Of a DNA stretch of 64,000 bases, positions 3,682-53,280 are shown in pieces (the first letter of the stretch is position 1; every line of letters begins with the position of its first letter). The stretch lies in contig JBAZJZ010000001.1 in assembly GCA_041650995.1 (NCBI GenBank), positions 227,166 through 291,165 on the forward strand, read 5' to 3'. The translations under genes and the position numbers were made by a program. Below the pieces are notes generated by a model. That model made no database searches and had not been told where the DNA came from. It worked only from the letters and a program-made list of their open reading frames with translations. This stretch comes from Patescibacteria group bacterium (GTDB taxonomy: Bacteria; Patescibacteriota; Patescibacteriia; XYB2-FULL-38-15).

Positions 3682-4002
3682 ATGCGCCAGGAAACGACAG
3701 GAGCTCATTGTCTGGAGACTCGTTCCGATAACGGAGGTTCAAGGAAGAGAAGGGAGCTCATGGAAAAACGCCGCGTCTTACGCTTGCTGACCATCCCGGA
3801 AATCAAGCGAAAGCTTTTGCTGCGTAAGGCGTATAGGAGTCTTTCACGCTGGCAGCGCTTCATGCACGACATGGGTTTGGCCGAATTCCTTCTTAAAGAT
3901 GGAGAGATTCACCCAGAGTATCGCATAAACTGGGTTAGTGTCGTTGTTTGGGTTTTTACGCTTTGTCTTGCTGCGTTTTACATCTTCAGGATGCTTTTGT
4001 AG
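3682..4002 (+). CDS. hypothetical 106 aa protein with a C-terminal transmembrane helix, GC-rich (cassette A2)
   Basis: RBS AAGAAGGGAGAG. The C-terminal hydrophobic stretch is VSVVVWVFTLCLAAFYIF. Confidence 0.5.
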   Translation: MRQETTGAHCLETRSDNGGSRKRRELMEKRRVLRLLTIPEIKRKLLLRKAYRSLSRWQRFMHDMGLAEFLLKDGEIHPEYRINWVSVVVWVFTLCLAAFYIFRMLL

Positions 4003-26324: not shown

Positions 26325-27191
26325 ATGATCGAAGAAGAAATATTAAAAGAAATCGCGGCAAGGGAGCATTTTGTTATAAGCCAATTTGAACGAGTTGGTT
26401 TAGATATTCGGCGATATCCAGAATTATTTGATAGATTAAAGCAACTCCATGGTCCAGAGTCAAAACACTTTGAGGACGCCGTGCAGATGGTGGAAATAAT
26501 TGAAGAAATTTGGGAAGAGTTGGACAAACAGCTACCTTTTAAATTGGAGAAAGAAAAGATGATTTTGGCTACACTTTTACACGATGTCGGAAAATCCGGA
26601 CCCAAGGAGGCGACCTCTGAAGAACAAAAATTGATTGTTACTCTTTTTGATCCAACTCATTATGAACGAATCGTGGCGGCTGGAAAAAATGTGGCAGAAG
26701 AAACTATTCTTCGCGCTCTTCGCGATTCTGATTTGGAGGATGGAGCGCAACGTAAGATTGCAAAATATCTAAATAGTTTGGGCATAGATATTTCAAGTGA
26801 AAAAATGATTGATTTCTGGCGTCGGCATGCTGATTGGACTTATGATATCTTGAAAGATTTAGAGGGTGAAAAAATTGATGATCGGTTGGCCGTGATGGCC
26901 GCGTCGCATCATATTTTAGACGGGAAAAATCCAGCGGGGATTAATTTAGAACAAATTCCCGAAGAAGCCAGAACAATTGAAATAATTGAAACTTACGAAG
27001 TTTTAACTATTGTTGATAAATTTCAAGCTTTTATAAAAAGAAGCGGGCTTGACCATGCTGCAGCAATAAAAATTTTACGGAGTATAATTATAAATCAGAA
27101 ATTTCCCAAGCGGGTGGAGGAAAGTTATCTTGCAATTCTCACAGTTATAGAAAATTCAAAAGATAAATTACAAGCTAAATTGAAGAAGTAA
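26325..27191 (+). CDS. HD-domain phosphohydrolase
   Basis: LLHDVGK HD motif. Confidence 0.6.
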   Translation: MIEEEILKEIAAREHFVISQFERVGLDIRRYPELFDRLKQLHGPESKHFEDAVQMVEIIEEIWEELDKQLPFKLEKEKMILATLLHDVGKSGPKEATSEEQKLIVTLFDPTHYERIVAAGKNVAEETILRALRDSDLEDGAQRKIAKYLNSLGIDISSEKMIDFWRRHADWTYDILKDLEGEKIDDRLAVMAASHHILDGKNPAGINLEQIPEEARTIEIIETYEVLTIVDKFQAFIKRSGLDHAAAIKILRSIIINQKFPKRVEESYLAILTVIENSKDKLQAKLKK

Positions 27192-30046: not shown

Positions 30047-30916
30047 ATGGGGAGGATAAAAGATTATCATAAAAAGAGTTACCGGAACCCTTTTTTTGGT
30101 GGGGCCAAAAGGGGAGGCGGTTTCCGCAAGCACTTTGGCCGGCGGCGTAGCTGGCGCACAAAGCTGTTTGCATTTTTATTTTTTATTTTATTTTTTGGTT
30201 TAGTCTATTTTATTTTTTTCTCGCCGTATTTTAGCATAAAAGAAGTTGAAATATTTGGTTTGGAAAAAATTAATTATGATGAGGCGCGTGCAGTAGTTGA
30301 TAACCAGGTTCAAGGCCGGAGATTTTTTATTTTTAGTCAAGATAATATTTTTATTTTTGACGAAAAATTACTTCAGGAAACGTTAGATGATAAATATTCG
30401 CTCAAATTTTTAAAAGTGGATAAAAGTTTACCTGGAATTATCAAGATATCCTTCGAAGAAAAAAAACCAGCTATGATTTGGAAAACGGCGGAGAAATTTT
30501 ATTTAGTTGATTGGGACGGCGCAATAATTCGCGAAATTACGGATCCGGAGGTATCAGAGTACCTGGGAAATCAGGGAGGGGCAAAAATGGCGCGAGTTTT
30601 TGATGGCAGCAATGATTCAGTGGCAACTAAAAGTAAAATTTTAACAGCCGGGGTAGTTCATACTATAACTGACCTACAAAACAATTTGCCGCGCGCCACA
30701 GGGCTTAATATTGTAAATTTTGTAATGGATAATCACAATGAGTCTACAATAAAAATTTTAACTGGCGAGGGTTGGGTATCCTACTTTTCGCTTAAAAACG
30801 ATTTAAACGCGCAGATTTTAAAACTTAATGCATTTATGGGAGAAAGGAATGTAGAAGAAAGAAAAAGATTAGAATATGTTGATTTAAGGTTTGAAGATAG
30901 GGTTTATTTCAAGTAG
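30047..30916 (+). CDS. ftsQ: FtsQ/DivIB-like cell-division protein with a POTRA domain
   Basis: A basic cytoplasmic N-terminus is followed by one TM and a POTRA-like YFSIKEVEIFG motif. Confidence 0.55.
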   Translation: MGRIKDYHKKSYRNPFFGGAKRGGGFRKHFGRRRSWRTKLFAFLFFILFFGLVYFIFFSPYFSIKEVEIFGLEKINYDEARAVVDNQVQGRRFFIFSQDNIFIFDEKLLQETLDDKYSLKFLKVDKSLPGIIKISFEEKKPAMIWKTAEKFYLVDWDGAIIREITDPEVSEYLGNQGGAKMARVFDGSNDSVATKSKILTAGVVHTITDLQNNLPRATGLNIVNFVMDNHNESTIKILTGEGWVSYFSLKNDLNAQILKLNAFMGERNVEERKRLEYVDLRFEDRVYFK

Positions 30917-31079: not shown

Positions 31080-32336
31080 TTACGGAAGATAATCTAGCGG
31101 ATTAACCGGAATGCCGTCAAGACGCGTTTCAAAATGTAAATGTGGTCCCGTGGTAAAAGGTCCAGCTCCCGGCGTGCCAGGCATACCGCCGGAAAGGCCA
31201 ATAACCTGCCCCCTGATCACATATGTGTCTTCCTGAACACTAATTTTTGAAACATGTCCGTAAACAGTAGAAATTCCGTTAGCGTGGATTAACATAATAT
31301 AACTATATCCCTTTTGTCCCCCATTTTTGACCTTGCCAACGTAACCTGGGGCAGCAGCCTTAATTTGCGTGCCCTGATAAGCACGAATATCAATTCCGGA
31401 ATGTTCAAAAATATATCGATAAGGATAATCTGAATCGTGAAAGGTCGCAGTGATTCCCCTACTCGGATCAACTGGCCAGGAAAGAATAACTGAGCCGGAT
31501 TGTCCATTAGAAAAAGATTTATCGCTTTCTTCCAATCGTTGCCGGATTGATTTTTCGAGTGAAGTAATTTCTGAGTTTATTTGTTCTTCTTCGTATTTTG
31601 ATTGTAATAGCCAATTTTGAAACTGTTTTTCGGAAGCGGCTGTTCTATCAAGCAATACCTCCTTATTCATTATTTGTTCTTCAAGCGAACTTTGCATCTT
31701 TACCATTTCATTTTTTGAATTTTCTGCCTCATTTTTTTTATTCTCCAATTGTTTCTTTTGCTCTTCCAATGATGTCTTTAATTCCTGAATTTGATTTAAG
31801 GATTTTTGCAAATCAGCCTGCAGATTTTCAACATATTTCATCTGATTAAAGACTTCGGAAAAATATTGGTTGGTCGCGAGTACTTCAAGATAACCTTTTT
31901 GGTCATTCTTGTAAATCAATCGCAGGAATTCGGATATCCTATCTTTATTTAAGGTAATTTGATTTTCTTTTTCCTGAATTTGCGTTTCTAGATTTCTTAT
32001 TTCCAAAGTTATTGTTTCTATCTTTTTTTCCGTAGCTTCAATGTCTATTTTAATTTTAGCTATTTTATTAGATAGAATAGCGAGTTCAGTTGAAAGACTA
32101 ACGGATTTACGTTGGGCTTCTTCAATTTGTCTTTTATAGCTTTCTGATTTTTTTTGTAAAGCTTCAATCTCCTTCTTTTTTGCGTCTATTTCTCTATCTA
32201 AGTTAGAAATTTCTTGTACAAGTCCATTGGCAGGGGTGTTTTCGGCTTTTGCAGTATGAATTAAAGAAAAATTAAAAGGAACAATCAAACAGATTGCCGT
32301 TATAATAATCACTATTTTCCCGATTTTTTGTACCAT
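31080..32336 (-). CDS. M23-family peptidoglycan endopeptidase (EnvC/LytM-like) with an N-terminal coiled coil
   Basis: HSGIDI...HANG...GPHLHFE zinc site. Confidence 0.8.
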   Translation of the reverse strand: MVQKIGKIVIIITAICLIVPFNFSLIHTAKAENTPANGLVQEISNLDREIDAKKKEIEALQKKSESYKRQIEEAQRKSVSLSTELAILSNKIAKIKIDIEATEKKIETITLEIRNLETQIQEKENQITLNKDRISEFLRLIYKNDQKGYLEVLATNQYFSEVFNQMKYVENLQADLQKSLNQIQELKTSLEEQKKQLENKKNEAENSKNEMVKMQSSLEEQIMNKEVLLDRTAASEKQFQNWLLQSKYEEEQINSEITSLEKSIRQRLEESDKSFSNGQSGSVILSWPVDPSRGITATFHDSDYPYRYIFEHSGIDIRAYQGTQIKAAAPGYVGKVKNGGQKGYSYIMLIHANGISTVYGHVSKISVQEDTYVIRGQVIGLSGGMPGTPGAGPFTTGPHLHFETRLDGIPVNPLDYLP

Positions 32337-35292: not shown

Positions 35293-35715
35293 GTGGCTCG
35301 GAGGAGAGAGGAGAGTAAAATAATGGCAGCGGGAAATTCTCGAGTAAGGTATGGTTCAGGTCATTCGACAAGAGAAATGCCCGTTCTTCCGGATTGCCGA
35401 CGGGGCCATGTCTGTATTTCTTCGTCTCGTGGAGCGGGCCATTGTGGCCACTGTGATACGGATTTCATCTGTCCTTCATGCAAACATAATGGCATGAAGA
35501 CCAAGGATTGCGAACCGCCTGCCTTCATCCTGCAGTGTCCCCGATGTCAACACGAAGAACGGATTCACTGGGTTGAGTTTGACATCCAGTGTCCCCGATG
35601 CGGATGTAAAAACGCTTCCGGGACATATTCGAGGTTGCTGGAACCGATCATTCAATGCCCGGACTGCGGACCGAGTAGGGGGGGTGTCGGTCGTGCAGAA
35701 AAGGAGGGGAAATGA
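35293..35715 (+). CDS. multi-zinc-ribbon protein with five CxxC-type pairs, GC-rich (D1). The start is probably the ATG at 35323, behind a GGAGGAGAGAGGAGAG RBS.
   Basis: CGHC..CPSC, CPRC..CPRCGC and CPDCG pairs. Confidence 0.55.
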   Translation: MARRREESKIMAAGNSRVRYGSGHSTREMPVLPDCRRGHVCISSSRGAGHCGHCDTDFICPSCKHNGMKTKDCEPPAFILQCPRCQHEERIHWVEFDIQCPRCGCKNASGTYSRLLEPIIQCPDCGPSRGGVGRAEKEGK

Positions 35716-35933
35716 GCAAACTGCCTGGAAGGCAAGAAGAGGGAAAAATTCCATCCTGGTTTTTGGACGGTCAAGGCCAGATTGGTTGCACGGCAATCGG
35801 AGGCAATCCTCCGTCGACTCTTCTGCACATACCCCCTGTTTTAGAGGGTGTGGATGTGGAACAAGCCTGGTGGCCAAAAAATGGGCTGGGAGGCGATTAT
35901 GAGTTGCTTCCCTGGCTGACGCGCCCAATTTGA
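35712..35933 (+). CDS. hypothetical 73 aa protein (D2)
   Basis: Overlaps the D1 stop in an ATGA. RBS AAGGAGGGG. Confidence 0.45.
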   Translation: MSKLPGRQEEGKIPSWFLDGQGQIGCTAIGGNPPSTLLHIPPVLEGVDVEQAWWPKNGLGGDYELLPWLTRPI

Positions 35934-35954
35934 ACAAAAGAAGGGGAAGACAAG

Positions 35955-36221
35955 GTGGCAAGAAAATCTGGACGTCGTAAGAACATCTTCAGTGGTCTTG
36001 GAATCTCTCCTGAACAAGAAGCTGCGCTCAGAAGAAGGGCGCCGCCGCTTTCGGAGAGACGGTGGCTCGAGATACAACTGCTCATTGCGCGGGATGCGTT
36101 GGCCGACAGTTTTCCCCTGGAACCGATTTTTGTCGTTCCGCCAATCGTGGGACGCGAAGAGCGCAAGCCGCGAAGATCGATTCTGATCGACAACTTCTCC
36201 GGAGTAGAAAGGCTTCGCTAG
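35955..36221 (+). CDS. hypothetical 88 aa protein (D3), GTG start
   Basis: RBS GAAGGGGAAG. Arg-rich. Confidence 0.4.
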   Translation: MARKSGRRKNIFSGLGISPEQEAALRRRAPPLSERRWLEIQLLIARDALADSFPLEPIFVVPPIVGREERKPRRSILIDNFSGVERLR

Positions 36222-36234
36222 GGAGAAGAACTAC

Positions 36235-36462
36235 GTGAGTGAAGACGCTAATTTAAAAGAGCGCGAAGAAGCTTTGCGCCAACGACTTGTTACCTGGGCA
36301 GCACTTACTCCGGAGGAACGTCTGGATGCGAGGGTAAAAAGACTTCGTTTGTGGAAGCGACTCGAGGAAGAAGCCACCGGTGTCTGCAGTCGCGAAGCTG
36401 GTCTGCCCGGTGACTGGGATATTCCTTGCCGACCCGACGTGGAGTTTAAGGAGGTGGATTAG
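36235..36462 (+). CDS. hypothetical 75 aa charged helical protein (D4), GTG start
   Basis: RBS GGGAGAAG. Sequence EERLDARVKRLRLWKRLEEEA. Confidence 0.4.
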   Translation: MSEDANLKEREEALRQRLVTWAALTPEERLDARVKRLRLWKRLEEEATGVCSREAGLPGDWDIPCRPDVEFKEVD

Positions 36463-36493
36463 CCGACGCGAAAGAGGAAGCGTCGGTTTTTTT
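36463..36493 (+). terminator. intrinsic terminator CCGACGCG..CGCGTCGG followed by TTTTTTT
   Basis: Same stem family as 4041 and 5019. Confidence 0.55.
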
Positions 36494-36521
36494 ATTATCT
36501 GATTTTTGCTATAATTAAAGT

Positions 36522-40628: not shown

Positions 40629-40654
40629 ACGGCCGAAAAAGCCGTGGTTTTTTT
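40629..40654 (+). terminator. clpB terminator ACGGC..GCCGT followed by TTTTTTT
   Basis: Stem with a T-tract. Confidence 0.5.
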
Positions 40655-40656
40655 AT

Positions 40657-40704
40657 AAAAAAAGACCCGACTCGGAAGATATTTCAGTCTCTTCACGAGT
40701 CGGG
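40657..40704 (-). terminator. minus-strand terminator CCCGACTCG..CGAGTCGGG for the island E operon
   Basis: An A-run precedes the stem on the + strand, which gives a T-tract on the - strand. Confidence 0.5.
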
Positions 40705-40722
40705 GTGACTCCAGTCTGGGAG

Positions 40723-40914
40723 TCAGCAGGGTCTAAACGCGATGGGTTCGCGCCGCCAGCCGAAACCGTCCGTCATCTTCTCGCTTCTCCCCCCTTCGCG
40801 AAGCGCGCCGTCCTGTGGTGCACCACAAAAGGCAATCGCAACCGGCGGTGGGGACGAAAAGAGCCGTGCCAGGTTTCGCGTGACGAAGTGCGCGAACAGT
40901 CCAGCACTTAGCAT
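40723..40914 (-). CDS. hypothetical 63 aa protein (E3), GC-rich
   Basis: RBS GGAGGAGG sits 6 nt upstream of the ATG. Confidence 0.35.
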   Translation of the reverse strand: MLSAGLFAHFVTRNLARLFSSPPPVAIAFCGAPQDGALREGGRSEKMTDGFGWRREPIAFRPC

Positions 40915-41016
40915 GCCGGACCTCCTCCGTTCCCTCGGATTTGGGTCAGTGTTAGGTTCCCGCCATTCTTCTTTCTTCGCCCGGGTTTCAGCGCGACGGC
41001 TGACGCTGTCCCGGGC

Positions 41017-41217
41017 TTATGCAGCGAGCGAGCACTCTCCCAAGATCACCTTGGTGAAGACCGCGTCGGACGTGCCTCGGGTTCCAGCTGTTGGCTGGTT
41101 CCCGTGCGCACCAAAAGTGCCAAGGAAGATGTCGGGCAAGGGTTCGAGCCAGAGATCCGGAACGAGCGTCACAGCGACCGCGACGCCAATCATCGGACCG
41201 AGGAAATCCACCATCAC
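41017..41217 (-). CDS. hypothetical 66 aa protein (E2), coupled to E1 by an ATGA overlap
   Basis: An internal ATG of the 126-aa track ORF overlaps the E1 stop. Confidence 0.35.
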   Translation of the reverse strand: MMVDFLGPMIGVAVAVTLVPDLWLEPLPDIFLGTFGAHGNQPTAGTRGTSDAVFTKVILGECSLAA

Positions 41218-41450
41218 CGCTCTCCTTTCGCGAATCGCCTTCTCTCCCCTACGTTCCTTATCTTGCCCCAAACCCACATGATTCCGGAGAGGAATGAGAA
41301 AAAGCACAGGAAGTATGGCCACAGCAAGATCACGATAATGATGAGGGAGACGTCTGACAGATTGGACTTCAATTCCTTCCGGAGTTGCTTCCAACATACC
41401 ACGACTACTAGGGCCGCGACGATCCCGACGATCCAGATTGTGGTTGCCAC
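41214..41450 (-). CDS. hypothetical 78 aa small membrane protein (E1), GTG start
   Basis: Two hydrophobic helices. RBS GAGAGGGAAG. Confidence 0.45.
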   Translation of the reverse strand: MATTIWIVGIVAALVVVVCWKQLRKELKSNLSDVSLIIIVILLWPYFLCFFSFLSGIMWVWGKIRNVGERRRFAKGER

Positions 41451-41542: not shown

Positions 41543-41599
41543 AGAGATAATTTATAAATAAAAAGAGCCGACCCAAGGTTTGACAACCTATGGATCGGC

Positions 41600-41860
41600 G
41601 GATGACGAGAGTTGGCGTCCTCGAAGTAGTACCGTCAGGTTGACGGTCGCTGAGTAGCGTCAAGGTGTTTGACTACACCGAGGACAGAAGCCTGGTGGCG
41701 CCGGTGGGGTCCGGTCAGGTCGACGTGGACGTCGGGGAAGCGAACATGTGATTTCCGCTGTCGCGCGAACGCGCGAACGGACCGTACCTGATTCCCATCT
41801 GATCCTCCTTCTTCCGTAGGGGGGTTGCCTTTCACCGTGGAAGACTTCCCCACCCCATGA
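41600..41860 (-). other. GC-rich structured transcription unit with three tandem palindromes, a 27-codon ORF (MGIRYGPFARSRDSGNHMFASPTSTST) behind a GAAGGAGGA RBS, and its own imperfect terminator at about 41560-41600
   Basis: The palindromes are CCGTCAggTTGACGG, GACGCT..AGCGTC and GGTGTttgactACACC. Confidence 0.3.
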
Positions 41861-41866
41861 TGTCAA

Positions 41867-41895
41867 TATATTAACACAAGATTGTGTTGTTGTCA
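41867..41895 (-). promoter_or_regulatory. promoter TTGACA-17-TAATAT on the minus strand driving the structured unit
   Basis: It sits back to back with the + strand extended -10 (TGgTAAAAT) of the next gene. Confidence 0.35.
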
Positions 41896-44732: not shown

Positions 44733-46676
44733 ATGTTTGTTGAAGTTATTCCCCTGGCTCGTCTACCTAAAAACCTTTCTTCTTTCGATTATGAAGTCCC
44801 TCAAAATCTTGAGGGACAAATTAAAATTGGCCAGATCGCGAAAATTCCTTTTCGCGGCAAAAAAATCAGCGGAATTATTATCGCTATAAAAAATCAACCG
44901 GCTGAAATTAAGGCCGCCATTAGGCCGATTTTAAAAATCATTGATTTTGAGGAAAATTTAGATAAAAAATATTTGGAACTTCTGCGTTGGCTTGCCGATT
45001 ATTATCTCGTTTCCTCCGCCCTTGTTTTAAAAACTCTTCTTCCCTCTCCGCCGCAGAAAATAAGTAATTTTAAAATTATTCCACGGCCGACACCTTCACC
45101 CCCAAGTGTCTCCAAAGTGGATTTAGAAGAAATTAAAAAAATCGTTAAGAAAATAATTTCTTCTAAAAAACATCATTTTCTTTTTCACTATAAAAATAAT
45201 AGAAATAAAGTTGCGGTATTTTTAAAGTGTGCGGAAAAAATAGTTTCGGAAGGCCATGGCGTTCTTATTCTTCTTCCTCAAATAAGTGATGTTTTAGAAA
45301 TTTTTTCCTATTTTTCCAGCTTATTTTCCGGAAAAATTTCTCTCCTCCACGGAGAACTATCTAAAACGGAGTATTGGCAAGAGTGGCAAAAAATAAAACG
45401 GAGAGAAACCAGAATTGCGATCGGCACAAGATCCGCGTTTTTTGTCCCCTTTAAAAATCTTGGGCTGGTTATTATTGATAATGAAGAAGCGCCAGATTTT
45501 AAGCAGTCAGATCAAAATCCTCACTACGACGCAAGAGATGCTGCGATGAAGCTATCAGAAATCACTGGCGCAAAAATAATTTTTGCAAGCCAAGCGCCGC
45601 GACCTGAAACATATTTTGAATCGCAAAATAATCCAGATTTTGATTATCTCCCTCCGGAAATCCCCTCCCCTCCCGTTTCTGATCTTATTGACATGAATAA
45701 TGAAATAAAAAATAAAAATTTTTCTTCTTTAAGCGGAAAAATAAAAGAAAAAATATCCGAAACTCTTTCCAAAAAACAAAAAGTTATTTTACTCCTAAAT
45801 CGCCGCGGGGCGGGAACCGCGATTATTTGCCGCGATTGCGATCATATTTTTAAATGTAAAACATGCGAAACCTCGCTCATTTGCCACGATGAAGGATGTA
45901 ATTTACCCAGCAGATTTGTTTGCCACAATTGCGGGGCGGAAGAATCAGCGCAACTTGTTTGCCCAAAATGTCGGGGCAGTAATATTAAATATCTTGGCGT
46001 AGGAACGCAAACCGTAGAAAAAGAAATTAAAAATTTATTTCCCAAAGAAAATATTTTAAGAATTGATAAAGACGCAAAATCTCTGAATCAAAATTTTCCC
46101 TCAGACGCAGAGATTTTTATTGGCACTCAATTCTTTATTAAAAACTATTTAGCGCGGGTTAAAAATATTGGATTGATCGGTGTCATTTCAGCGGATACAC
46201 TAATTTATCGACCAGACTTTCGCTCCGGGGAGAAAATTTTTTCTTGGCTGACAGGTATTATTAATTTTTCCCGCAGTATAAAAAGTCCCCTTATAATTCA
46301 AACTTTTTTTCCAAATAATTTTGTTATTCAAAGCGCTATTGGGGAAAGTCCAGAATCTTTTTATCTTGAAGAGTTGGATAATCGTCAAGTATTGAGTTAT
46401 CCGCCATTTGGTAAAATGATCAAATTGACTTATGGTAATACTGAAGAAAAAAAATGTTTTGATGAGTCGGATAAAATTTTTAAATTATTGAAAAATAGTT
46501 TAGAGGGAAAGGCGGATATTTTTTTTGAGTCCAAACCAAAAAGAGAAAAAAGAAAATTTTTTTCGAAAATTATTATTAAATTTTCTAAAGACTACGAACC
46601 AGTGATAAAAAATGTTATTATAAAAAATATCCCTGATTCCTGGACTATTGACATTGACCCGGAAAATATACTATAA
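44733..46676 (+). CDS. priA: primosomal protein N' (PriA)-like with a degenerate Walker A
   Basis: PriA N-terminus FDYEVPQ..IPFRGKKISGII and a Cys-rich zinc region CRDCDH..CKTCE..CHNCG..CPKC. No GxGKT motif. Confidence 0.6.
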   Translation: MFVEVIPLARLPKNLSSFDYEVPQNLEGQIKIGQIAKIPFRGKKISGIIIAIKNQPAEIKAAIRPILKIIDFEENLDKKYLELLRWLADYYLVSSALVLKTLLPSPPQKISNFKIIPRPTPSPPSVSKVDLEEIKKIVKKIISSKKHHFLFHYKNNRNKVAVFLKCAEKIVSEGHGVLILLPQISDVLEIFSYFSSLFSGKISLLHGELSKTEYWQEWQKIKRRETRIAIGTRSAFFVPFKNLGLVIIDNEEAPDFKQSDQNPHYDARDAAMKLSEITGAKIIFASQAPRPETYFESQNNPDFDYLPPEIPSPPVSDLIDMNNEIKNKNFSSLSGKIKEKISETLSKKQKVILLLNRRGAGTAIICRDCDHIFKCKTCETSLICHDEGCNLPSRFVCHNCGAEESAQLVCPKCRGSNIKYLGVGTQTVEKEIKNLFPKENILRIDKDAKSLNQNFPSDAEIFIGTQFFIKNYLARVKNIGLIGVISADTLIYRPDFRSGEKIFSWLTGIINFSRSIKSPLIIQTFFPNNFVIQSAIGESPESFYLEELDNRQVLSYPPFGKMIKLTYGNTEEKKCFDESDKIFKLLKNSLEGKADIFFESKPKREKRKFFSKIIIKFSKDYEPVIKNVIIKNIPDSWTIDIDPENIL

Positions 46677-46685
46677 TATTTTATT

Positions 46686-47159
46686 ATGATTTTACCTATT
46701 ATCACAACTCCAAATCCAATTCTTCGTCAACACGCGAAAGAAATAAATCCAGAAGAAATCAAAAGCGAGGCTATTCAAAAATTGATTTCCGATATGAAAG
46801 AAACCGTAAGGCCAGCTGGCGGGATTGGTTTAGCCGCTCCGCAAGTTGGAATTTCAATGAGATTAATTGTGGTTGTTACGCAAGAAAAAGTAATGGCTTT
46901 AATCAATCCGGAAATTATTAATTTTTCTTGGCGAAAAGAAGCTGCCGAGGAAGGTTGTCTTTCTGTTCCGGGAAAATGGGGTCCGGTAAAAAGATCAAAA
47001 ATTATTAAAGTTAAGGCGTTCGATGAAAACGGCAAATCTATAAAATTTAAGGCTAAAGATCTTTTTGCCCGCGTTATTCAGCATGAAGTTGACCATTTAA
47101 ACGGCGTACTCTTTATTGATCGGGCGAAAAAAGTTATTGAAGAAGCGCCGAAAATTTAG
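46686..47159 (+). CDS. def: peptide deformylase
   Basis: GIGLAAPQVG, EGCLSVPG and QHEVDHLNG motifs. Confidence 0.9.
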   Translation: MILPIITTPNPILRQHAKEINPEEIKSEAIQKLISDMKETVRPAGGIGLAAPQVGISMRLIVVVTQEKVMALINPEIINFSWRKEAAEEGCLSVPGKWGPVKRSKIIKVKAFDENGKSIKFKAKDLFARVIQHEVDHLNGVLFIDRAKKVIEEAPKI

Positions 47160-47168
47160 ATTAAAATT

Positions 47169-48113
47169 ATGAATTATAAAATATTATTTGCCGGTAGTGG
47201 GGAATTTGCCGCCGATATTTTAAACAGATTAGCCGATTCAGAATTTCGTCCAATTACTATAATTACTCAACCAGATAAACCAGTTGGTCGAAAAAAAACT
47301 CTCTCCCCTTCCCCGGTAAAAATTGAAGCACAAAAATTAGATCTTGAAATTTACGATCCAAGGAGTTTAAAAAATTTTGAAGCCGAAAAAACAATTAAAG
47401 ATTTGAAACCGGACTTATTGATTGTTGCTGATTATGGAAAGATAATTCCTAAAAATATTTTGGATATCCCAAAATTTGGCGCTCTAAATATTCACCCCTC
47501 CCTTTTGCCTCGCCATCGCGGCGCGGCGCCGATACAGTATACGATTTTAGAAGGCGATAAAAAAACAAGTGTTACAATAATTTTAATGGATGAACAAGTT
47601 GATCATGGGCCGATTGTAGCAATATCAGATTTGGACTTTGAAATTTCAAATTTAACACATACTGAATTATCGAAAAAATTATCAAAATTAGGTGGCGATT
47701 TATTGATAAAAATATTGCCTAAATGGTTTAGCGGCGAAATTAAGCCAATACCGCAAGATGAATCGCGGGCAACTTTCACAAAAATTTTAACGCGTGAAGA
47801 CGGAAAAATTGACTGGCAAAAATCAGCAGAAGAAATTGAGAGACAAATAAGAGCGCTCGAGGGGTGGCCGGGAACTTGGTGTGTATGGCCGGAGGAAAAT
47901 AAAAAATTGAAAATTTTACGCGCGGAAATTTTTGAAAATGATCCGACTGGCGGAGTCGGACAAGTTTCACTTTCTTCTGGCGGAGAAATAATAGTCACTA
48001 CGGGTAAGGGAACCTTAAAAATAAATGAGCTGCAGTTGGAAGGAAAAAATAAAGCAACAGGCCAAGAATTTTTGCGGGGTTATTCTAAAATCATCAGCGC
48101 TACTTTAATATAA
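47169..48113 (+). CDS. fmt: methionyl-tRNA formyltransferase
   Basis: Formyltransferase N-domain with SLLPRHRGAAPIQ. Confidence 0.9.
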   Translation: MNYKILFAGSGEFAADILNRLADSEFRPITIITQPDKPVGRKKTLSPSPVKIEAQKLDLEIYDPRSLKNFEAEKTIKDLKPDLLIVADYGKIIPKNILDIPKFGALNIHPSLLPRHRGAAPIQYTILEGDKKTSVTIILMDEQVDHGPIVAISDLDFEISNLTHTELSKKLSKLGGDLLIKILPKWFSGEIKPIPQDESRATFTKILTREDGKIDWQKSAEEIERQIRALEGWPGTWCVWPEENKKLKILRAEIFENDPTGGVGQVSLSSGGEIIVTTGKGTLKINELQLEGKNKATGQEFLRGYSKIISATLI

Positions 48114-48124
48114 ATTTATATAAT

Positions 48125-48160
48125 ACAAAACCAGTCGAATTAACGGCTGGTTTTGTATTT
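48125..48160. terminator. bidirectional terminator CAAAACCAGCCG..CGGCTGGTTTTG
   Basis: Seen in sequence. Confidence 0.55.
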
Positions 48161-48164
48161 ATCC

Positions 48165-48350
48165 TTATCTTGCAAAATTAGCTCTTCGCTTTTTGTTGCA
48201 TTCAAAGCAATAAATTGGTCGATCAGCGGCTGGCTTAAAAGGAAGCTCGGTGATCGGGGCGCCACAGTCAGCGCATTTGAGGTTCATGTCAGCGACATTG
48301 AACATCTGGCGCGGAGGTCTGGGGCCAAAGCCTTGATTGTTGAAGGCCAT
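48165..48350 (-). CDS. 61-aa zinc-ribbon protein (CxxC-x17-CxxC)
   Basis: CADCGAPITELPFKPAADRPIYCFEC. A leader of about 115 nt follows a consensus promoter. Confidence 0.55.
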   Translation of the reverse strand: MAFNNQGFGPRPPRQMFNVADMNLKCADCGAPITELPFKPAADRPIYCFECNKKRRANFAR

Positions 48351-48477
48351 AAGTTACTTGAAGTCTCGGTCATTTTAACTTATGACCTTTTGATATTATC
48401 TCAAGGATCTATCGTTAAAATTGTCCTACTCTTCTGCTCGCTCCCGTCTAAACGAGAGCTTATTTAATTATGTTTAC

Positions 48478-48505
48478 ATTATACACTATTCTATGAATTT
48501 GTCAA
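48478..48505 (-). promoter_or_regulatory. promoter TTGACA-16-TATAAT on the minus strand
   Basis: A perfect consensus. Confidence 0.45.
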
Positions 48506-48508
48506 GAT

Positions 48509-48542
48509 AAAAAGAAGTGGCGTCAACTTGCGTTAACGCCAC
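48509..48542 (-). terminator. minus-strand terminator GTGGCGTcAAC..GTTaACGCCAC for cassette F
   Basis: One mismatch in the stem. T-run on the minus strand. Confidence 0.45.
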
Positions 48543-48580
48543 TAAGAGAAATGATTTTGTAGTTCGGGTGAGGATTTGGG

Positions 48581-48973
48581 CTAGCCCCTCCATGAAACGT
48601 CGGTCAGGGGCACGCTGACCTCTACCTGGCGTTGCGGCCAGCCGTTCTCCGGACCGATCCTCCTGGCCGTCTCGCCCATCGTCTGGACGAATCGGCGAAG
48701 CGCGGAGTCGCTCCGACCCTCCCTCGTTTCGAAGGGAGGCGCGAGGTGCTCCAGAAGATCGGGCGAGAAGCCAATCGTGATCTGGAGCGGATCCTTGATG
48801 CCGTGTTCCTGGCTCGCAGGGATCGAGCTGTCGGGCATCACCGTGATGTCTTCCGGTTTCAATTTCAACCCGAAGTTGAAACGGCGGCATGCTTCGCGGA
48901 GCATCCGCTCGAGCCGTCCACAGCTGAACTCGTGGCTTCCTCCTCCTTTGACCAAAAATTTCACTTTGCCCAT
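48581..48973 (-). CDS. hypothetical 130 aa protein, GC-rich (cassette F)
   Basis: RBS GGGAAGGAGAAAG. The alternative 178-aa and 137-aa frames are R-rich or low complexity. Confidence 0.5.
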   Translation of the reverse strand: MGKVKFLVKGGGSHEFSCGRLERMLREACRRFNFGLKLKPEDITVMPDSSIPASQEHGIKDPLQITIGFSPDLLEHLAPPFETREGRSDSALRRFVQTMGETARRIGPENGWPQRQVEVSVPLTDVSWRG

Positions 48974-49032
48974 CTCTTGTCTTTCTCCTTCCCTTTCCCC
49001 CTACTGCCGCCCTATGCAGCAAACTCGATTAT

Positions 49033-49060
49033 ATTTTATACTTAATTGATATTTTGTCAA
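49033..49060 (-). promoter_or_regulatory. promoter TTGACA-16-TAAAAT on the minus strand for cassette F
   Basis: Consensus hexamers. Confidence 0.45.
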
Positions 49061-49111
49061 GATTAAAAACCTCCGCTTTCACGGGGGTTTTTGTCAAAAC
49101 TTTTGTCCCGG

Positions 49112-50815
49112 TTATTTTTTTAACTTTTGAATAAATATATCACAAAAAATTATATATCCAATTCCCAAAGGATGGTTCAAATATGGACTAAAAAAATTTG
49201 TGGCTAAAAGGGCGGCTAATCCGGCCAAAAACCCGAATGCTATAAATACCCCAGAACGCCCCAAACCCCAGCCAGAACGCCAAATTTTAGCGATAAAAAG
49301 AAGATAAACAACTAGTCCGGCCAAGCCAATTTTAAGCATTATATCCAAATATCCCCATTCAAAAGCGTAGGTTGTAAAAATCCCCCCTGGATTAACCTGA
49401 ACCGCGCGAGGATCACTGCTTTTGTAAGTGACTGTTGTCCCAAACCCTGAACCAATAATTGGATGTTTTATAATTGCTTGTCCAAGCGGTGGCAAAAGAT
49501 CCCAACGGCTCCGGACCGCGGCTTCGTCTAAATCGGTCAGGCGGTCGCTAAACATTGAAGCAAAAGAAATTCTTCCCGGCTCGGGAAATGGAAATTGCGC
49601 GGTCGCGAAAGTCGCGGACAAAGAAATTACTAAAATGGCGAGGCCGGCTAAACCAATTTTTACAATTTTTCCCAAAGAAAATTTTTGAATAATTAAAATT
49701 ATCAAAAGTGCGAGAAGTCCGACCGCGAGCCCAACCCAAAAACTTCGAGAAAAACTGATCAAAACCGAAGTCAATGATCCAATCGCCAATAACCAATATC
49801 TCTTGTCCTTTTTGTTTTGCCAAATTAAGAAAGCGGAAAAAATAAAAAACCCAATCAGTAAATAAATCTGCGACTGGAAAAATATTCGGTAAAAACCGCT
49901 TGGCATTAATGTAACTTCTCCGATTAAAAATTGCCGGAGCCAACGATAGATCGGAAGAACTGCGACTTCAAAACCATGAGAAAAAATGTAAAGGAAGAAA
50001 AAAGTTTTGATAATAATAACCGTAACGGCGGCGGTGAAAATTTGTAAAACATTTTCAATTTGTTCGCGCGATTTTATAACATCAACGAGCGGGAAAATAA
50101 TGCCAAAATAAAGCCAGCCATTAAAATCAAAAAATAAATTTTGGAAAGAGTTGCCGCGAATTAATCCCCAAATAAATCCCCAGATAATAAATGCAAACAA
50201 TATCCAATACCATTTATTTAGCGAAAATTTAAAATCCCGTTTTTCAATTCTTCTATATACCCAAACTGCCATCACAATTAAAAATAAGGCAATGCGCAGA
50301 GAGACCGAAGTTCCGCCTAAATCAAAATAAAATAAATATCCTTTTGAACCAATAAACAATTCTGCTAATAGGATATAAATTCCATATTCCAATTTTTCCA
50401 AAGTTAAAACTAAAGTCAGGCCAAGAATAACAAAAAATGATACTTTATTAAAGAGCGGGAAAAAATACGCGACAAAAGACAAAATTAACGCGAAAGAAAC
50501 GAAGAGCAGCGAGGTTTTAAAATATTTTCCGAATAAGTTCATATCTTGACAATTTATATTTTTATTGATAGATTGTAGTGTAGCCTGAACAATCTCGTTT
50601 AGGCCAGAAGGAGGGTATAAGGGATGAATTCCCGACTCGAAAGACTCAAGGTGACGATCGCGAAGTGCGAGAAGATCGAGGAGATTTTCGCCAAGCATCG
50701 CGTTCGCGGAACGGAGCCCACCCACTACGACGACGTGATCGCCGGCTTCGACACTCCGGCGCGAAGCGGCTTTCTCTTGAGGTGGGATCTCGTGGTTAAG
50801 GGTTCGGCCGGCCAC
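49112..50815 (-). CDS. O-antigen ligase/polymerase-like (Wzy_C-type) polytopic membrane protein. The true start is probably ATG at about 50542 (MNLFGKYF).
   Basis: About 12 TM segments. The N-terminal 95 aa of the track ORF are GC-rich and antisense to cassette H. Confidence 0.6.
   Translation of the reverse strand: MAGRTLNHEIPPQEKAASRRSVEAGDHVVVVGGLRSANAMLGENLLDLLALRDRHLESFESGIHPLYPPSGLNEIVQATLQSINKNINCQDMNLFGKYFKTSLLFVSFALILSFVAYFFPLFNKVSFFVILGLTLVLTLEKLEYGIYILLAELFIGSKGYLFYFDLGGTSVSLRIALFLIVMAVWVYRRIEKRDFKFSLNKWYWILFAFIIWGFIWGLIRGNSFQNLFFDFNGWLYFGIIFPLVDVIKSREQIENVLQIFTAAVTVIIIKTFFFLYIFSHGFEVAVLPIYRWLRQFLIGEVTLMPSGFYRIFFQSQIYLLIGFFIFSAFLIWQNKKDKRYWLLAIGSLTSVLISFSRSFWVGLAVGLLALLIILIIQKFSLGKIVKIGLAGLAILVISLSATFATAQFPFPEPGRISFASMFSDRLTDLDEAAVRSRWDLLPPLGQAIIKHPIIGSGFGTTVTYKSSDPRAVQVNPGGIFTTYAFEWGYLDIMLKIGLAGLVVYLLFIAKIWRSGWGLGRSGVFIAFGFLAGLAALLATNFFSPYLNHPLGIGYIIFCDIFIQKLKK
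50546..50574 (+). promoter_or_regulatory. promoter TTGACA-17-TAGATT for cassette H. It abuts the ligase start codon on the other strand.
   Basis: Seen in sequence. Confidence 0.45.
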
Positions 50816-52010: not shown

Positions 52011-52712
52011 TTATAAATGATGTTTTGCTTTGATAATTTTCAAAGCGGCACTGTATTTTTTTATCGCCTTTGGCGCCCAACCAATTTTTTCCCAAGGAAT
52101 TTTATACATAAAACTTGGCAGCCAAGAAGAAATTCCGGTTCGGCGAGGTTTTACAGTAAATAAAAATTCGGGCACCCAAATACCAACGTGTCCTTGCTCA
52201 GCCATCGTTAGCCACAAATCCCAATCCTGAAATTTTTTTAAACTTTCATCCCAGCCGGGAAAGTGTTCGCGACGAATAAGTGTTGTAGAAGTAATATAAT
52301 TCATTTTCTTAAGCGCCTCGCCATCAAACTCATGAAGACCAAATTTTTTTCTGCCCCACATAAAAGATGAATAGGCAAAAGATGCTTCGGGATGATTTAA
52401 AAGCGCGTCTAACATTTTTTGAAGCATTTCCGGTTTGGCGTCAATATCGGCATCAGCAAAAATTATAAACTGGCTGGTTGATTCCCTAAATCCCCTATTT
52501 CTTGCTGCCGGCGCGCCAAGATTTTTTTGGTTAATAATTTTTATTCGGTCTTTATATTTTTCCAAAACTTCAGCCGTGTTATCCGTTGAACCATCATTAA
52601 CTACAATAATTTCAAAATCTTTGAATGTTTGGTTAAACAATGATAAAAGACACGCTTCAATCGTGTCTCCGTGCTGGTAGGTTGGGATTATTACGCTTAT
52701 TTTTGGGAACAT
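52011..52712 (-). CDS. GT2-family glycosyltransferase
   Basis: ISVIIPTYQ..IIVVNDGSTDNT. Confidence 0.75.
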   Translation of the reverse strand: MFPKISVIIPTYQHGDTIEACLLSLFNQTFKDFEIIVVNDGSTDNTAEVLEKYKDRIKIINQKNLGAPAARNRGFRESTSQFIIFADADIDAKPEMLQKMLDALLNHPEASFAYSSFMWGRKKFGLHEFDGEALKKMNYITSTTLIRREHFPGWDESLKKFQDWDLWLTMAEQGHVGIWVPEFLFTVKPRRTGISSWLPSFMYKIPWEKIGWAPKAIKKYSAALKIIKAKHHL

Positions 52713-52818: not shown

Positions 52819-53280
52819 CTACCTCACGGGTTGGAATTGGATCTTGCCCTCATCCCCGGTTCTGCTCACGATCTCCATGTAGTAGAGTTCGATCTCGAGC
52901 CTGGGGCAACGCCGTTGCAGCGTATCTCGCGCGGCTCGCATATCGTCCTCATGGGCCGCTCTCTCCGCTTCAAGGCTCGGGAACGCCTCCGAACCGCCCC
53001 AGGCCTTGCAGTCGCGATGGGCGATCAAGATGACCCGCGTAGCTTGGTGGTGATGGTCAGAGACCCTACTGAACGCACCCAGGAAAACGTTCCTTGTTTC
53101 TCGATCGGTGTAGACCCTCGGCCCAGAAGGAAAAGTGTAGGGCGTGTAGAATAGAATGCCCAGCTCGTGCCTCAAGAAATCCTGGTGCTGCTGGACAAAC
53201 CGATAGTCCAGACAGAAGACGGCTACTACCGGGACTCTCAGTTTGAGATCAACCAGGTACAACTTACTTGCTTCTCTCAT
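52819..53280 (-). CDS. beta-carbonic-anhydrase-like zinc-site protein, the GC-rich copy (cassette I)
   Basis: CLDYR (CxDxR) and HRDC (HxxC). RBS AAGGAGGAGGG. Homologous to the adjacent native gene. Confidence 0.55.
   Translation of the reverse strand: MREASKLYLVDLKLRVPVVAVFCLDYRFVQQHQDFLRHELGILFYTPYTFPSGPRVYTDRETRNVFLGAFSRVSDHHHQATRVILIAHRDCKAWGGSEAFPSLEAERAAHEDDMRAARDTLQRRCPRLEIELYYMEIVSRTGDEGKIQFQPVR

Follow-up and report, generated by a model that had tools for sequence, protein, structure and literature searches.

Two single-gene cassettes beside fmt in a Patescibacteria genome, one with a conserved leader predicted to occlude the start codon of a zinc-ribbon gene

We analysed a window of 64,000 nucleotides (nt) from a Patescibacteria group bacterium (assembly GCA_041650995.1, contig JBAZJZ010000001.1, positions 227,166 to 291,165), in which the minus strand next to fmt holds two stacked, self-contained single-gene units. 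Unit 1 encodes a protein of 130 amino acids (aa) within a GC-rich stretch that we call island F, and unit 2 encodes a 61-aa zinc-ribbon microprotein preceded by a long leader. Both occupy a slot bounded by a Wzy_C-type membrane protein gene (49112-50815, minus strand) and the convergent plus-strand genes priA (44733-46676), def (46686-47159) and fmt (47169-48113), all four identified with Pfam. Along the minus strand, the Wzy_C terminator is followed by promoter 1, the 130-aa open reading frame (ORF), a terminator, promoter 2, the leader, the zinc-ribbon gene and a hairpin. A sequence-only reading of this DNA had proposed two stacked monocistronic units, and the promoters, ORFs and terminators given below bear it out: these are two independent monocistronic cassettes. 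The host is an AT-rich Patescibacteria genome near Candidatus Falkowbacteria, which is the label carried by the closest relatives of the locus. The window has a GC content of 40.5%, with about twenty short stretches above 55%, and it contains no tRNA and no Rfam family at gathering score. Related loci compared with the window are labelled L001, L002 and so on.

The features of unit 2 are as follows.

48505..48478, minus strand: promoter of unit 2, TTGACA-16-TATAAT, 12/12 consensus positions
48459..48440, minus strand: leader hairpin P1, GCUCUCGU-UUAG-ACGGGAGC, with covariation
48427..48404, minus strand: predicted leader block P2, AGGAC.AAU.../...GAUCCU within the invariant GAAGAGUAGGACAAUUUUAACGAUAGAUCCU
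48389..48343, minus strand: predicted leader helix P3, AAGGUCAUAAGUUA paired with UAACUUAUGGCCUU, enclosing the AUG
48387..48368, minus strand: alternative 6-bp hairpin GGUCAU/AUGACC, -7.5 kcal/mol, which would free the AUG
48350..48165, minus strand: 61-aa zinc-ribbon protein, CxxC-x18-CxxC, basic, isoelectric point (pI) 9.4, matching PF23477 and TIGR04272
48122..48159, both strands: hairpin between the convergent zinc-ribbon gene and fmt, a candidate bidirectional terminator by folding energy

Both units begin at strong promoters. The motif TTGACA-N16-18-TAWAAT has 6 matches in the 64-kb window against 0.15 expected from shuffles, and both promoters are invariant among homologous loci, promoter 2 in at least 12 of them. 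Promoter 2 is perfect, as had been claimed. The leader had been put at about 115 nt; it is indeed long, but nearer to about 121 nt if transcription starts, as we infer, about 7 nt after the -10 hexamer. At the other end of the unit, the hairpin next to fmt folds at -18.6 kcal/mol on the minus strand as compared with -22.1 kcal/mol on the plus strand (z about -7), and L001 keeps it. Its stability on either strand agrees with the earlier suggestion of a bidirectional terminator common to the zinc-ribbon gene and fmt, and it was not called by a pattern scanner because its U-run lies partly within the stem.

The leader is strongly conserved and structured. From the end of P1 to the ATG it is 88-99% identical in genomes that differ from one another by 44-50% at fmt third positions. 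The sequence-only reading had called for a structure prediction, and RNAalifold and single-sequence folding concur on P1, P2 and P3. P1 varies in sequence and keeps its pairing, with compensatory changes in 6/8 pairs and a covariation score reached by 0/500 shuffles. P3 is predicted to be a 14-bp helix of -17.6 kcal/mol that buries the AUG, which has no Shine-Dalgarno (SD) sequence, together with the next four bases. The whole zinc-ribbon transcript folds with z = -5.9 relative to shuffles. The alternative hairpin shares the 5' strand of P3 and would, by prediction, form first during transcription. In reverse complement, this hairpin also accounts for a plus-strand 'terminator' call at 48368-48387. 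An upstream AUG within the hairpin was rejected as a start codon or upstream ORF, as its frame shifts among lineages and meets a stop in L004.

Start-site accessibility governs SD-independent initiation. As this genome initiates mostly without SD sequences (see below), accessibility should dominate here, and on the folding models occlusion of the zinc-ribbon start by P3 would control its translation. P3 would lock the SD-less AUG and block initiation, and translation would proceed only while P3 is open. Opening might occur co-transcriptionally, with the upstream GGUCAU/AUGACC hairpin holding the 5' strand of P3, or through a factor binding the invariant P2-P3 sequence, possibly the zinc-ribbon protein itself (autoregulation). 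We give this reading, two cassettes with translational control of the zinc ribbon by start-site occlusion, a probability of roughly 60%. An RNA thermometer is unlikely, because P3 is the predicted minimum-energy fold throughout 10 to 45 C (-28 to -14 kcal/mol); unlike simple thermometers, it is too stable.

Several points weigh against this reading. Transcription starts and termination are read solely from consensus motifs and hairpins. The changes seen in P2 and P3 are only single, one-sided and wobble-compatible; both are near-invariant, so covariation cannot confirm them, and their invariance could reflect a protein-binding or sequence-level role instead of these helices. L094 lacks the alternative hairpin and L025 has only a weak one, which would limit the kinetic-trap variant to the window's own clade. 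The window contains no rRNA, hence the 16S anti-SD is not readable there. For the other cassette, two AlphaFold models of the 130-aa protein, of modest confidence, point toward different superfamilies, and Foldseek with these models returned nothing at E < 0.01.

Structure ahead of the zinc-ribbon gene extends beyond the immediate clade. P3 is kept in L094/L095 and in L025, whose zinc ribbons are 79% and 63% identical to that of the window, and in these loci an extra SD-containing hairpin lies within the P3 loop. A sister group (L022, L023, L030, L096) has another leader, in which a 5' segment, GUUAAGUCCUUGA, can pair with an AGGA-type SD region before the AUG, in slightly different registers among only four sequences. 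Across 71 non-redundant zinc-ribbon genes, the 140 nt upstream fold with a median z of -2.6 (63% below -2), compared with -0.5 (23% below -2) for control starts with similarly long spacers at the same loci (p = 1.5e-6). A structured leader is thus a family trait across Patescibacteria. The particular leader of the window is narrower in distribution: its covariance model finds one copy in the window, strong matches in the close clade only and a marginal one in L025. Rfam 15 gave no leader match at gathering score; at E up to 10, positions 48000-49200 gave only sub-threshold terminator-like hits, none in the leader.

Such conservation could instead come from expression-level selection only, with the leader serving as a stabilizing, expression-enhancing 5' untranslated region (UTR) of a very highly expressed gene. 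The perfect promoter fits this, as do the lowered synonymous divergence across the whole gene, beyond the leader, and P1, a generic 5' hairpin unconstrained in sequence; moreover, the homologues of Methanosarcina mazei rank with the small proteins detected most confidently (PMC12704099). However, a helix of -17.6 kcal/mol over an SD-less start codon is expected to inhibit initiation, and about 85 nt of base-for-base invariant non-coding RNA exceeds what stabilization needs. We consider the enhancer explanation rather unlikely.

Start-site occlusion has known parallels. The autoregulatory leaders of ribosomal proteins and the cspA 5' UTR are translational operators or long structured leaders of small nucleic-acid-binding proteins. 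The zinc-ribbon unit resembles them in its strong promoter, its leader of more than 100 nt, its small basic protein, a leader more conserved than neighbouring coding sequence and an initiation region held in structure. It differs in that its leader has no Rfam match and that binding of the protein to the leader is only proposed here. Kinetic co-transcriptional control of start-site access is known from the MS2 maturation gene and the hok-family mRNAs. As in these, a long-range helix would sequester the start in the full-length RNA, and an earlier local hairpin could free it; unlike in these, the alternative hairpin is unconserved beyond the window's clade. The zinc ribbon also differs from the hok family in being hydrophilic and basic, no membrane toxin, and no antisense RNA was identified. 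A type I toxin-like reading is unlikely given its grand average of hydropathicity (-0.57), its pI, the lack of a hydrophobic segment and the zinc-ribbon domain.

The protein of the second cassette is a new member of a known zinc-ribbon family, CxxC-x17-CxxC / zf_Tbcl_2. Two curated hidden Markov models match it above their cut-offs: Pfam PF23477 (zf_Tbcl_2) at 42.6 bits (cut-off 27, E 4.7e-11) and TIGR04272 (CxxC-x17-CxxC) at 43.7 bits (cut-off 36, E 1.6e-11). This upholds the 61-aa zinc ribbon of the sequence-only reading; its cysteine spacer, given there as 17 residues, has 18, and the family model still aligns across it. A spacer of 18 residues also occurs in two other Patescibacteria members, and one of 23 in another. 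None of the four cysteines (C26, C29, C48, C51) varies among 9 aligned homologues. Conservation of residues 1-21 (RPPRQMF/YDV) extends to distant homologues, and the 61-aa start is therefore preferred over the 40-aa version in some annotations. Homologues occur across Patescibacteria, with 80 loci returned, including Saccharibacteria, Uhrbacteria, Nealsonbacteria and Parcubacteria. Some of these relatives have tandem domains or glycine-arginine (RGG-like) tails, which fits nucleic-acid binding; judging from sequence, the zinc ribbon is probably a small basic nucleic-acid-binding protein, with RNA a likely target. Its third positions differ between genomes at 7-28% of sites, against 38-58% in def and fmt. 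We found no sequence-related solved structure for it. A plus-strand 104-aa ORF (48153-48467), antisense to the zinc ribbon and its leader, was rejected because its most variable codon position is position 1. It stays open in relatives because the sense strand is extremely conserved, and its position 1 corresponds to the zinc-ribbon third positions.

Homologous small proteins of M. mazei bind zinc, as determined by inductively coupled plasma mass spectrometry, and are abundantly detected (PMC12704099). The M. mazei proteins A00184 and A01980 and the window protein are alike in being about 60 aa long and built on two CxxC knuckles; unlike the M. mazei members, the Patescibacteria branch conserves an RPPRQMF motif of its own at the N terminus and carries a basic tail. 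In the literature on the domain, no function is shown for any CxxC-x17-CxxC member, and in the literature found a conserved structured leader is not described for the family. In the literature found for this domain and for the use of SD sequences by Patescibacteria, the M. mazei study (PMC12704099) was the only source of experimental information.

Unit 1, upstream of the zinc-ribbon unit, has the following features.

49060..49033, minus strand: promoter of unit 1, TTGACA-16-TAAAAT (-35 at 49060..49055, -10 at 49038..49033), 11/12 consensus positions
49022..49004, minus strand: 5'-terminal stem-loop of the island-F mRNA, UUGCUGC-AUAGG-GCGGCAG, -8.8 kcal/mol, z -2.9
48990..48985, minus strand: SD sequence AAGGAG in a purine-rich tract, 11 nt 5' of the ATG
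48973..48581, minus strand: island F coding sequence, 130 aa, MGKVKFLVKGGG..., identified by homologues and codon pattern, GC content at third codon positions (GC3) 0.76
48543..48506, minus strand: intrinsic terminator of unit 1, a 12-bp stem (48543..48516) followed by CUUCUUUUUAUC, adjoining the next -35

The island F stretch (48510..49032) is 57% GC, against 40.5% in the window. Several of its frames are open in the window, and a GC-rich stretch inside an AT-rich genome is also what a structured RNA looks like; island F might thus be a structured non-coding RNA, or a 178-aa or 137-aa frame might be the true gene. The sequence-only reading favoured the 130-aa frame, regarded the other two as competitors and named conservation of the alternatives as the outcome that would speak against it. 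We examined ten lineages, and that outcome did not occur. The 130-aa frame is the sole stop-free frame across them; every other frame is interrupted in some, and the equivalents of the 178-aa and 137-aa frames, which do exist in the window but are spurious, carry stops in several. Codon-aware alignments show substitutions in the order position 3 > 1 > 2 (0.44/0.29/0.17 between the window and L001), and every gap is a whole number of codons. GC1/GC2/GC3 values are 0.60/0.47/0.76 in the 130-aa frame, a GC-rich coding pattern, and 0.68/0.55/0.46 in the 178-aa frame. Furthermore, island F has no Rfam match even at E = 10. The 130-aa frame is therefore correct, and we reject the non-coding RNA reading; an RNA or an alternative frame here is exceedingly improbable.

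The signals around this frame had also been anticipated. Its promoter lies where it had been placed but is not quite perfect, with the -10 one base off consensus; both hexamers are kept in L001, L002 and L003, and the promoter is of a consensus, constitutive-looking sigma-70 type. The AAGGAG site is the ribosome-binding site predicted before the 130-aa ORF, and GGAG-type sites also precede the family genes of L001, L004, L006 and L008. The predicted terminator was found as the 12-bp stem and U-tract listed above (-19.8 kcal/mol, z -6.5), kept in all family loci. The 5' UTR of 53 nt contains the terminal hairpin as well as the AAGGAG. This hairpin is conserved (UUGCCGC/GCGGCAA in L001) and appears to act as an mRNA-stabilizing 5' element.

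The 130-aa protein founds a small, fast-evolving, undescribed family limited to one Falkowbacteria-like clade. Homologues share 54-68% identity. A profile search of 1.84 billion representative proteins found 12 members, 7 with E < 1e-10, and the family makes up 10 clusters among 5.8 billion proteins; it was not found in phage, plasmid or IMG/VR collections. The protein is soluble and hydrophilic (14.6 kDa, pI 8.7) and has no match in Pfam, NCBIfam, PHROG or PADLOC models. The two AlphaFold models (predicted local distance difference test scores of 65 and 69.5) share the element order beta-alpha-beta-beta-alpha-beta, and the protein is predicted to be a small two-layer alpha/beta sandwich, tautomerase-like or ferredoxin-like. 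The models and three fold searches agree on the element order but not on the superfamily, so we file the protein under neither.

The ferredoxin-like assignment was dropped for this disagreement between fold searches. The sequence appears to resemble two tautomerase-type beta-alpha-beta units, and a tautomerase assignment was dropped for want of Pro1 and of significant profile comparisons. The family differs from the tautomerase superfamily (fused 4-OT, MIF, cis-CaaD, CHMI) in lacking the catalytic Pro1; all 11 aligned members have G, S, D or L as residue 2. Tautomerase_2 matched 1/11 members, marginally (E 0.092). Comparison by hhalign with 4-OT and MIF sequences aligned structurally sensible segments at probabilities below 1%, and a PDB sequence-profile search gave only noise and no tautomerase. 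The models predict a protein without a recognizable active site. One variant, a 189-aa member in L004 (2175-2744, GC3 0.83; also in L016), has a PDZ-like insert between its two halves, with a PDZ_6 match of 24.8 bits, just below the cut-off. A search for paralogues of island F among the other islands of the window found none.

Island F is an accessory gene, and the GC-rich slot that holds it is variable. In every locus with visible context, the family gene is followed directly by the terminator, promoter 2, leader and zinc ribbon, and its position and orientation are identical in at least 13 independent loci. A metagenome scan for the family gave three informative loci, all with the invariant leader. 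The content of the slot differs among genomes and may include GC-rich genes (between one and four), small membrane proteins or a tRNA-Glu; some slots hold extra GC-rich genes, including a distant paralogue of island F, and L018 and L020 keep the conserved leader and zinc ribbon with the family gene missing. Adjacency of the zinc ribbon to fmt and Wzy_C is restricted to the Falkowbacteria-like lineage.

Other occupants of the slot recur as well. Upstream of the family gene there are often small GC-rich genes for predicted membrane proteins (L008 1181-2287, L020, L021, L018, L001 1239-1517), among which one recurring protein has about 90 aa (...LLLIALEG...RWFWK...) and a second has 77 aa and starts MEQEKPQPLFLYVLVSAV... 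A tRNA-Glu(UUC) lies in the slot of L002 (130-203). In L001 (1537-1641), an Rfam tRNA match spans 105 nt where ARAGORN calls nothing, which suggests that this copy carries an insertion or intron.

The constant adjacency of the two genes raises the idea of a functional pair, with the zinc ribbon as partner, regulator or antidote of the 130-aa protein. The family gene is immediately upstream of the zinc ribbon in the same orientation in the 13 or more independent loci noted above, and in the window the unit-1 terminator abuts the unit-2 -35. Yet the zinc ribbon is far more widespread and occurs without the family in L018, L020 and all distant Patescibacteria, and each gene has its own promoter and terminator. 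The two proteins also evolve at enormously different rates (identities of 25-60% for the 130-aa protein and 82-97% for the zinc ribbon), and neither has a PADLOC match. A functional pair is hence very unlikely in our judgement.

The codon usage of island F sets it apart from the native genes around it. In ten lineages the family gene has a GC3 of 0.68-0.83, compared with 0.25-0.42 in fmt and def at the same loci; ordinary genes of the window have 0.22-0.49, mostly below 0.42. Between lineages, 42-68% of the family's third positions differ, a saturation equal to that of fmt. High GC3 despite saturated third positions means that the GC-rich usage is maintained or renewed and is no decaying relic. 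We therefore regard it as actively maintained, not as the fading trace of a recent import, and candidate forces are selection on the mRNA, GC-biased gene conversion in a recombination-prone slot and repeated import.

These observations bear on the view that island F is an ordinary recent import, its GC content, SD sequence and promoter being leftovers of a donor or mobile pool re-delivered to a hot spot, with no host function. Its composition and signals do differ from those of host genes, the slot is variable with tRNA-Glu in some genomes, and family similarity does not track that of the neighbours: L004, closest in fmt (77%), has the most divergent member (31%), whereas L001 and L014, with fmt 62-64% identical, have members 59-65% identical. 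Set against this, no members were found outside the clade or in phage, plasmid and viral collections, position and orientation are the same at every locus, and GC3 shows no decay toward the host level of about 0.3. We find simple import doubtful, and prefer to see island F as an accessory gene whose composition is maintained.

Island F belongs to a class of GC-rich cassettes that are self-contained and led by an SD sequence, in a genome otherwise poor in such sequences. Among ordinary genes of the window (for example those starting at 26325, 27194 and 47169), 35/37 lack GGAG, GAGG and AGGA alike within 20 nt of the start. A strong SD precedes 6/6 clearly defined GC3-rich island genes, against 2/37 others (Fisher p = 4.6e-6), and the split recurs in four related genomes. 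The six genes start at 3682, 4129, 17475 (minus strand), 48973 (minus strand), 50624 and 53280 (minus strand), and each has its own TTGACA-type promoter and its own terminator. Only one of them has a Pfam match: the gene at 52819-53280 (minus strand, GC3 0.69) scores 34.4 bits (cut-off 30) with the Pro_CA_2 model and is thereby a putative carbonic anhydrase. PADLOC gave no match for the 130-aa protein, the zinc ribbon or five other island proteins.

In several ordinary genes, def included, only 5-10 nt separate a TATAAT from the ATG, an arrangement suggestive of leaderless mRNAs. At 46648-46686 (plus strand), the 12/12 promoter TTGACA-18-TATAAT stops 8 nt short of the def ATG, and on these sequence grounds the def-fmt operon looks leaderless; L004, L006 and L008 have TATAAT at an equal distance before def. 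The same arrangement occurs at 30047, 31080-32336 (minus strand), 36522 and 52011-52712 (minus strand).

A bolder proposal is that the island genes form a separate class with a second expression dialect, comprising a consensus promoter, a strong SD, GC3 of 0.6-0.8 and an own terminator, kept distinct over long evolutionary time from ordinary genes that are SD-less or leaderless; beside it, the zinc-ribbon leader would be a new class of cis-regulatory RNA that gates SD-independent initiation of an RNA-binding microprotein found throughout Patescibacteria. The dialect could be kept by selection, for example for SD-dependent translation under particular conditions or for mRNAs that resist AU-directed decay; alternatively, GC-biased gene conversion in recombination hot spots might keep it. 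We offer this as speculation and think it improbable as a whole.

Note that some GC-rich stretches of the window have no convincing coding frame (40651-41314, 41557-41878, 35535-36503). At 40742-41281, GC2 and GC3 are nearly the same (0.64), and ORFs overlap on both strands. These stretches gave no Rfam match at E up to 0.01; they may represent degraded genes or RNAs that annotation has missed.

Patescibacteria account for much of bacterial diversity, and in their tiny genomes most lineage-specific genes are unexplained. For now, this locus is of value less as a discovery than as a well-defined target. Two features that we infer computationally go beyond routine annotation, namely the near-invariant, start-occluding leader and the SD/GC3 dichotomy. 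The leader of the zinc-ribbon gene is more conserved than any neighbouring coding sequence and is predicted to hide the start codon. In organisms whose initiation is mostly SD-independent, this marks the leader as a candidate for a new and compact element of translational control. Beside it, and only beside this zinc-ribbon gene, lies a small protein family whose composition resists the AT drift of the genome. If the contrast between SD-led, GC-rich cassettes and SD-less native genes proves to be genome-wide, it would bear on how different modes of initiation coexist and on how accessory genes persist in reduced genomes.

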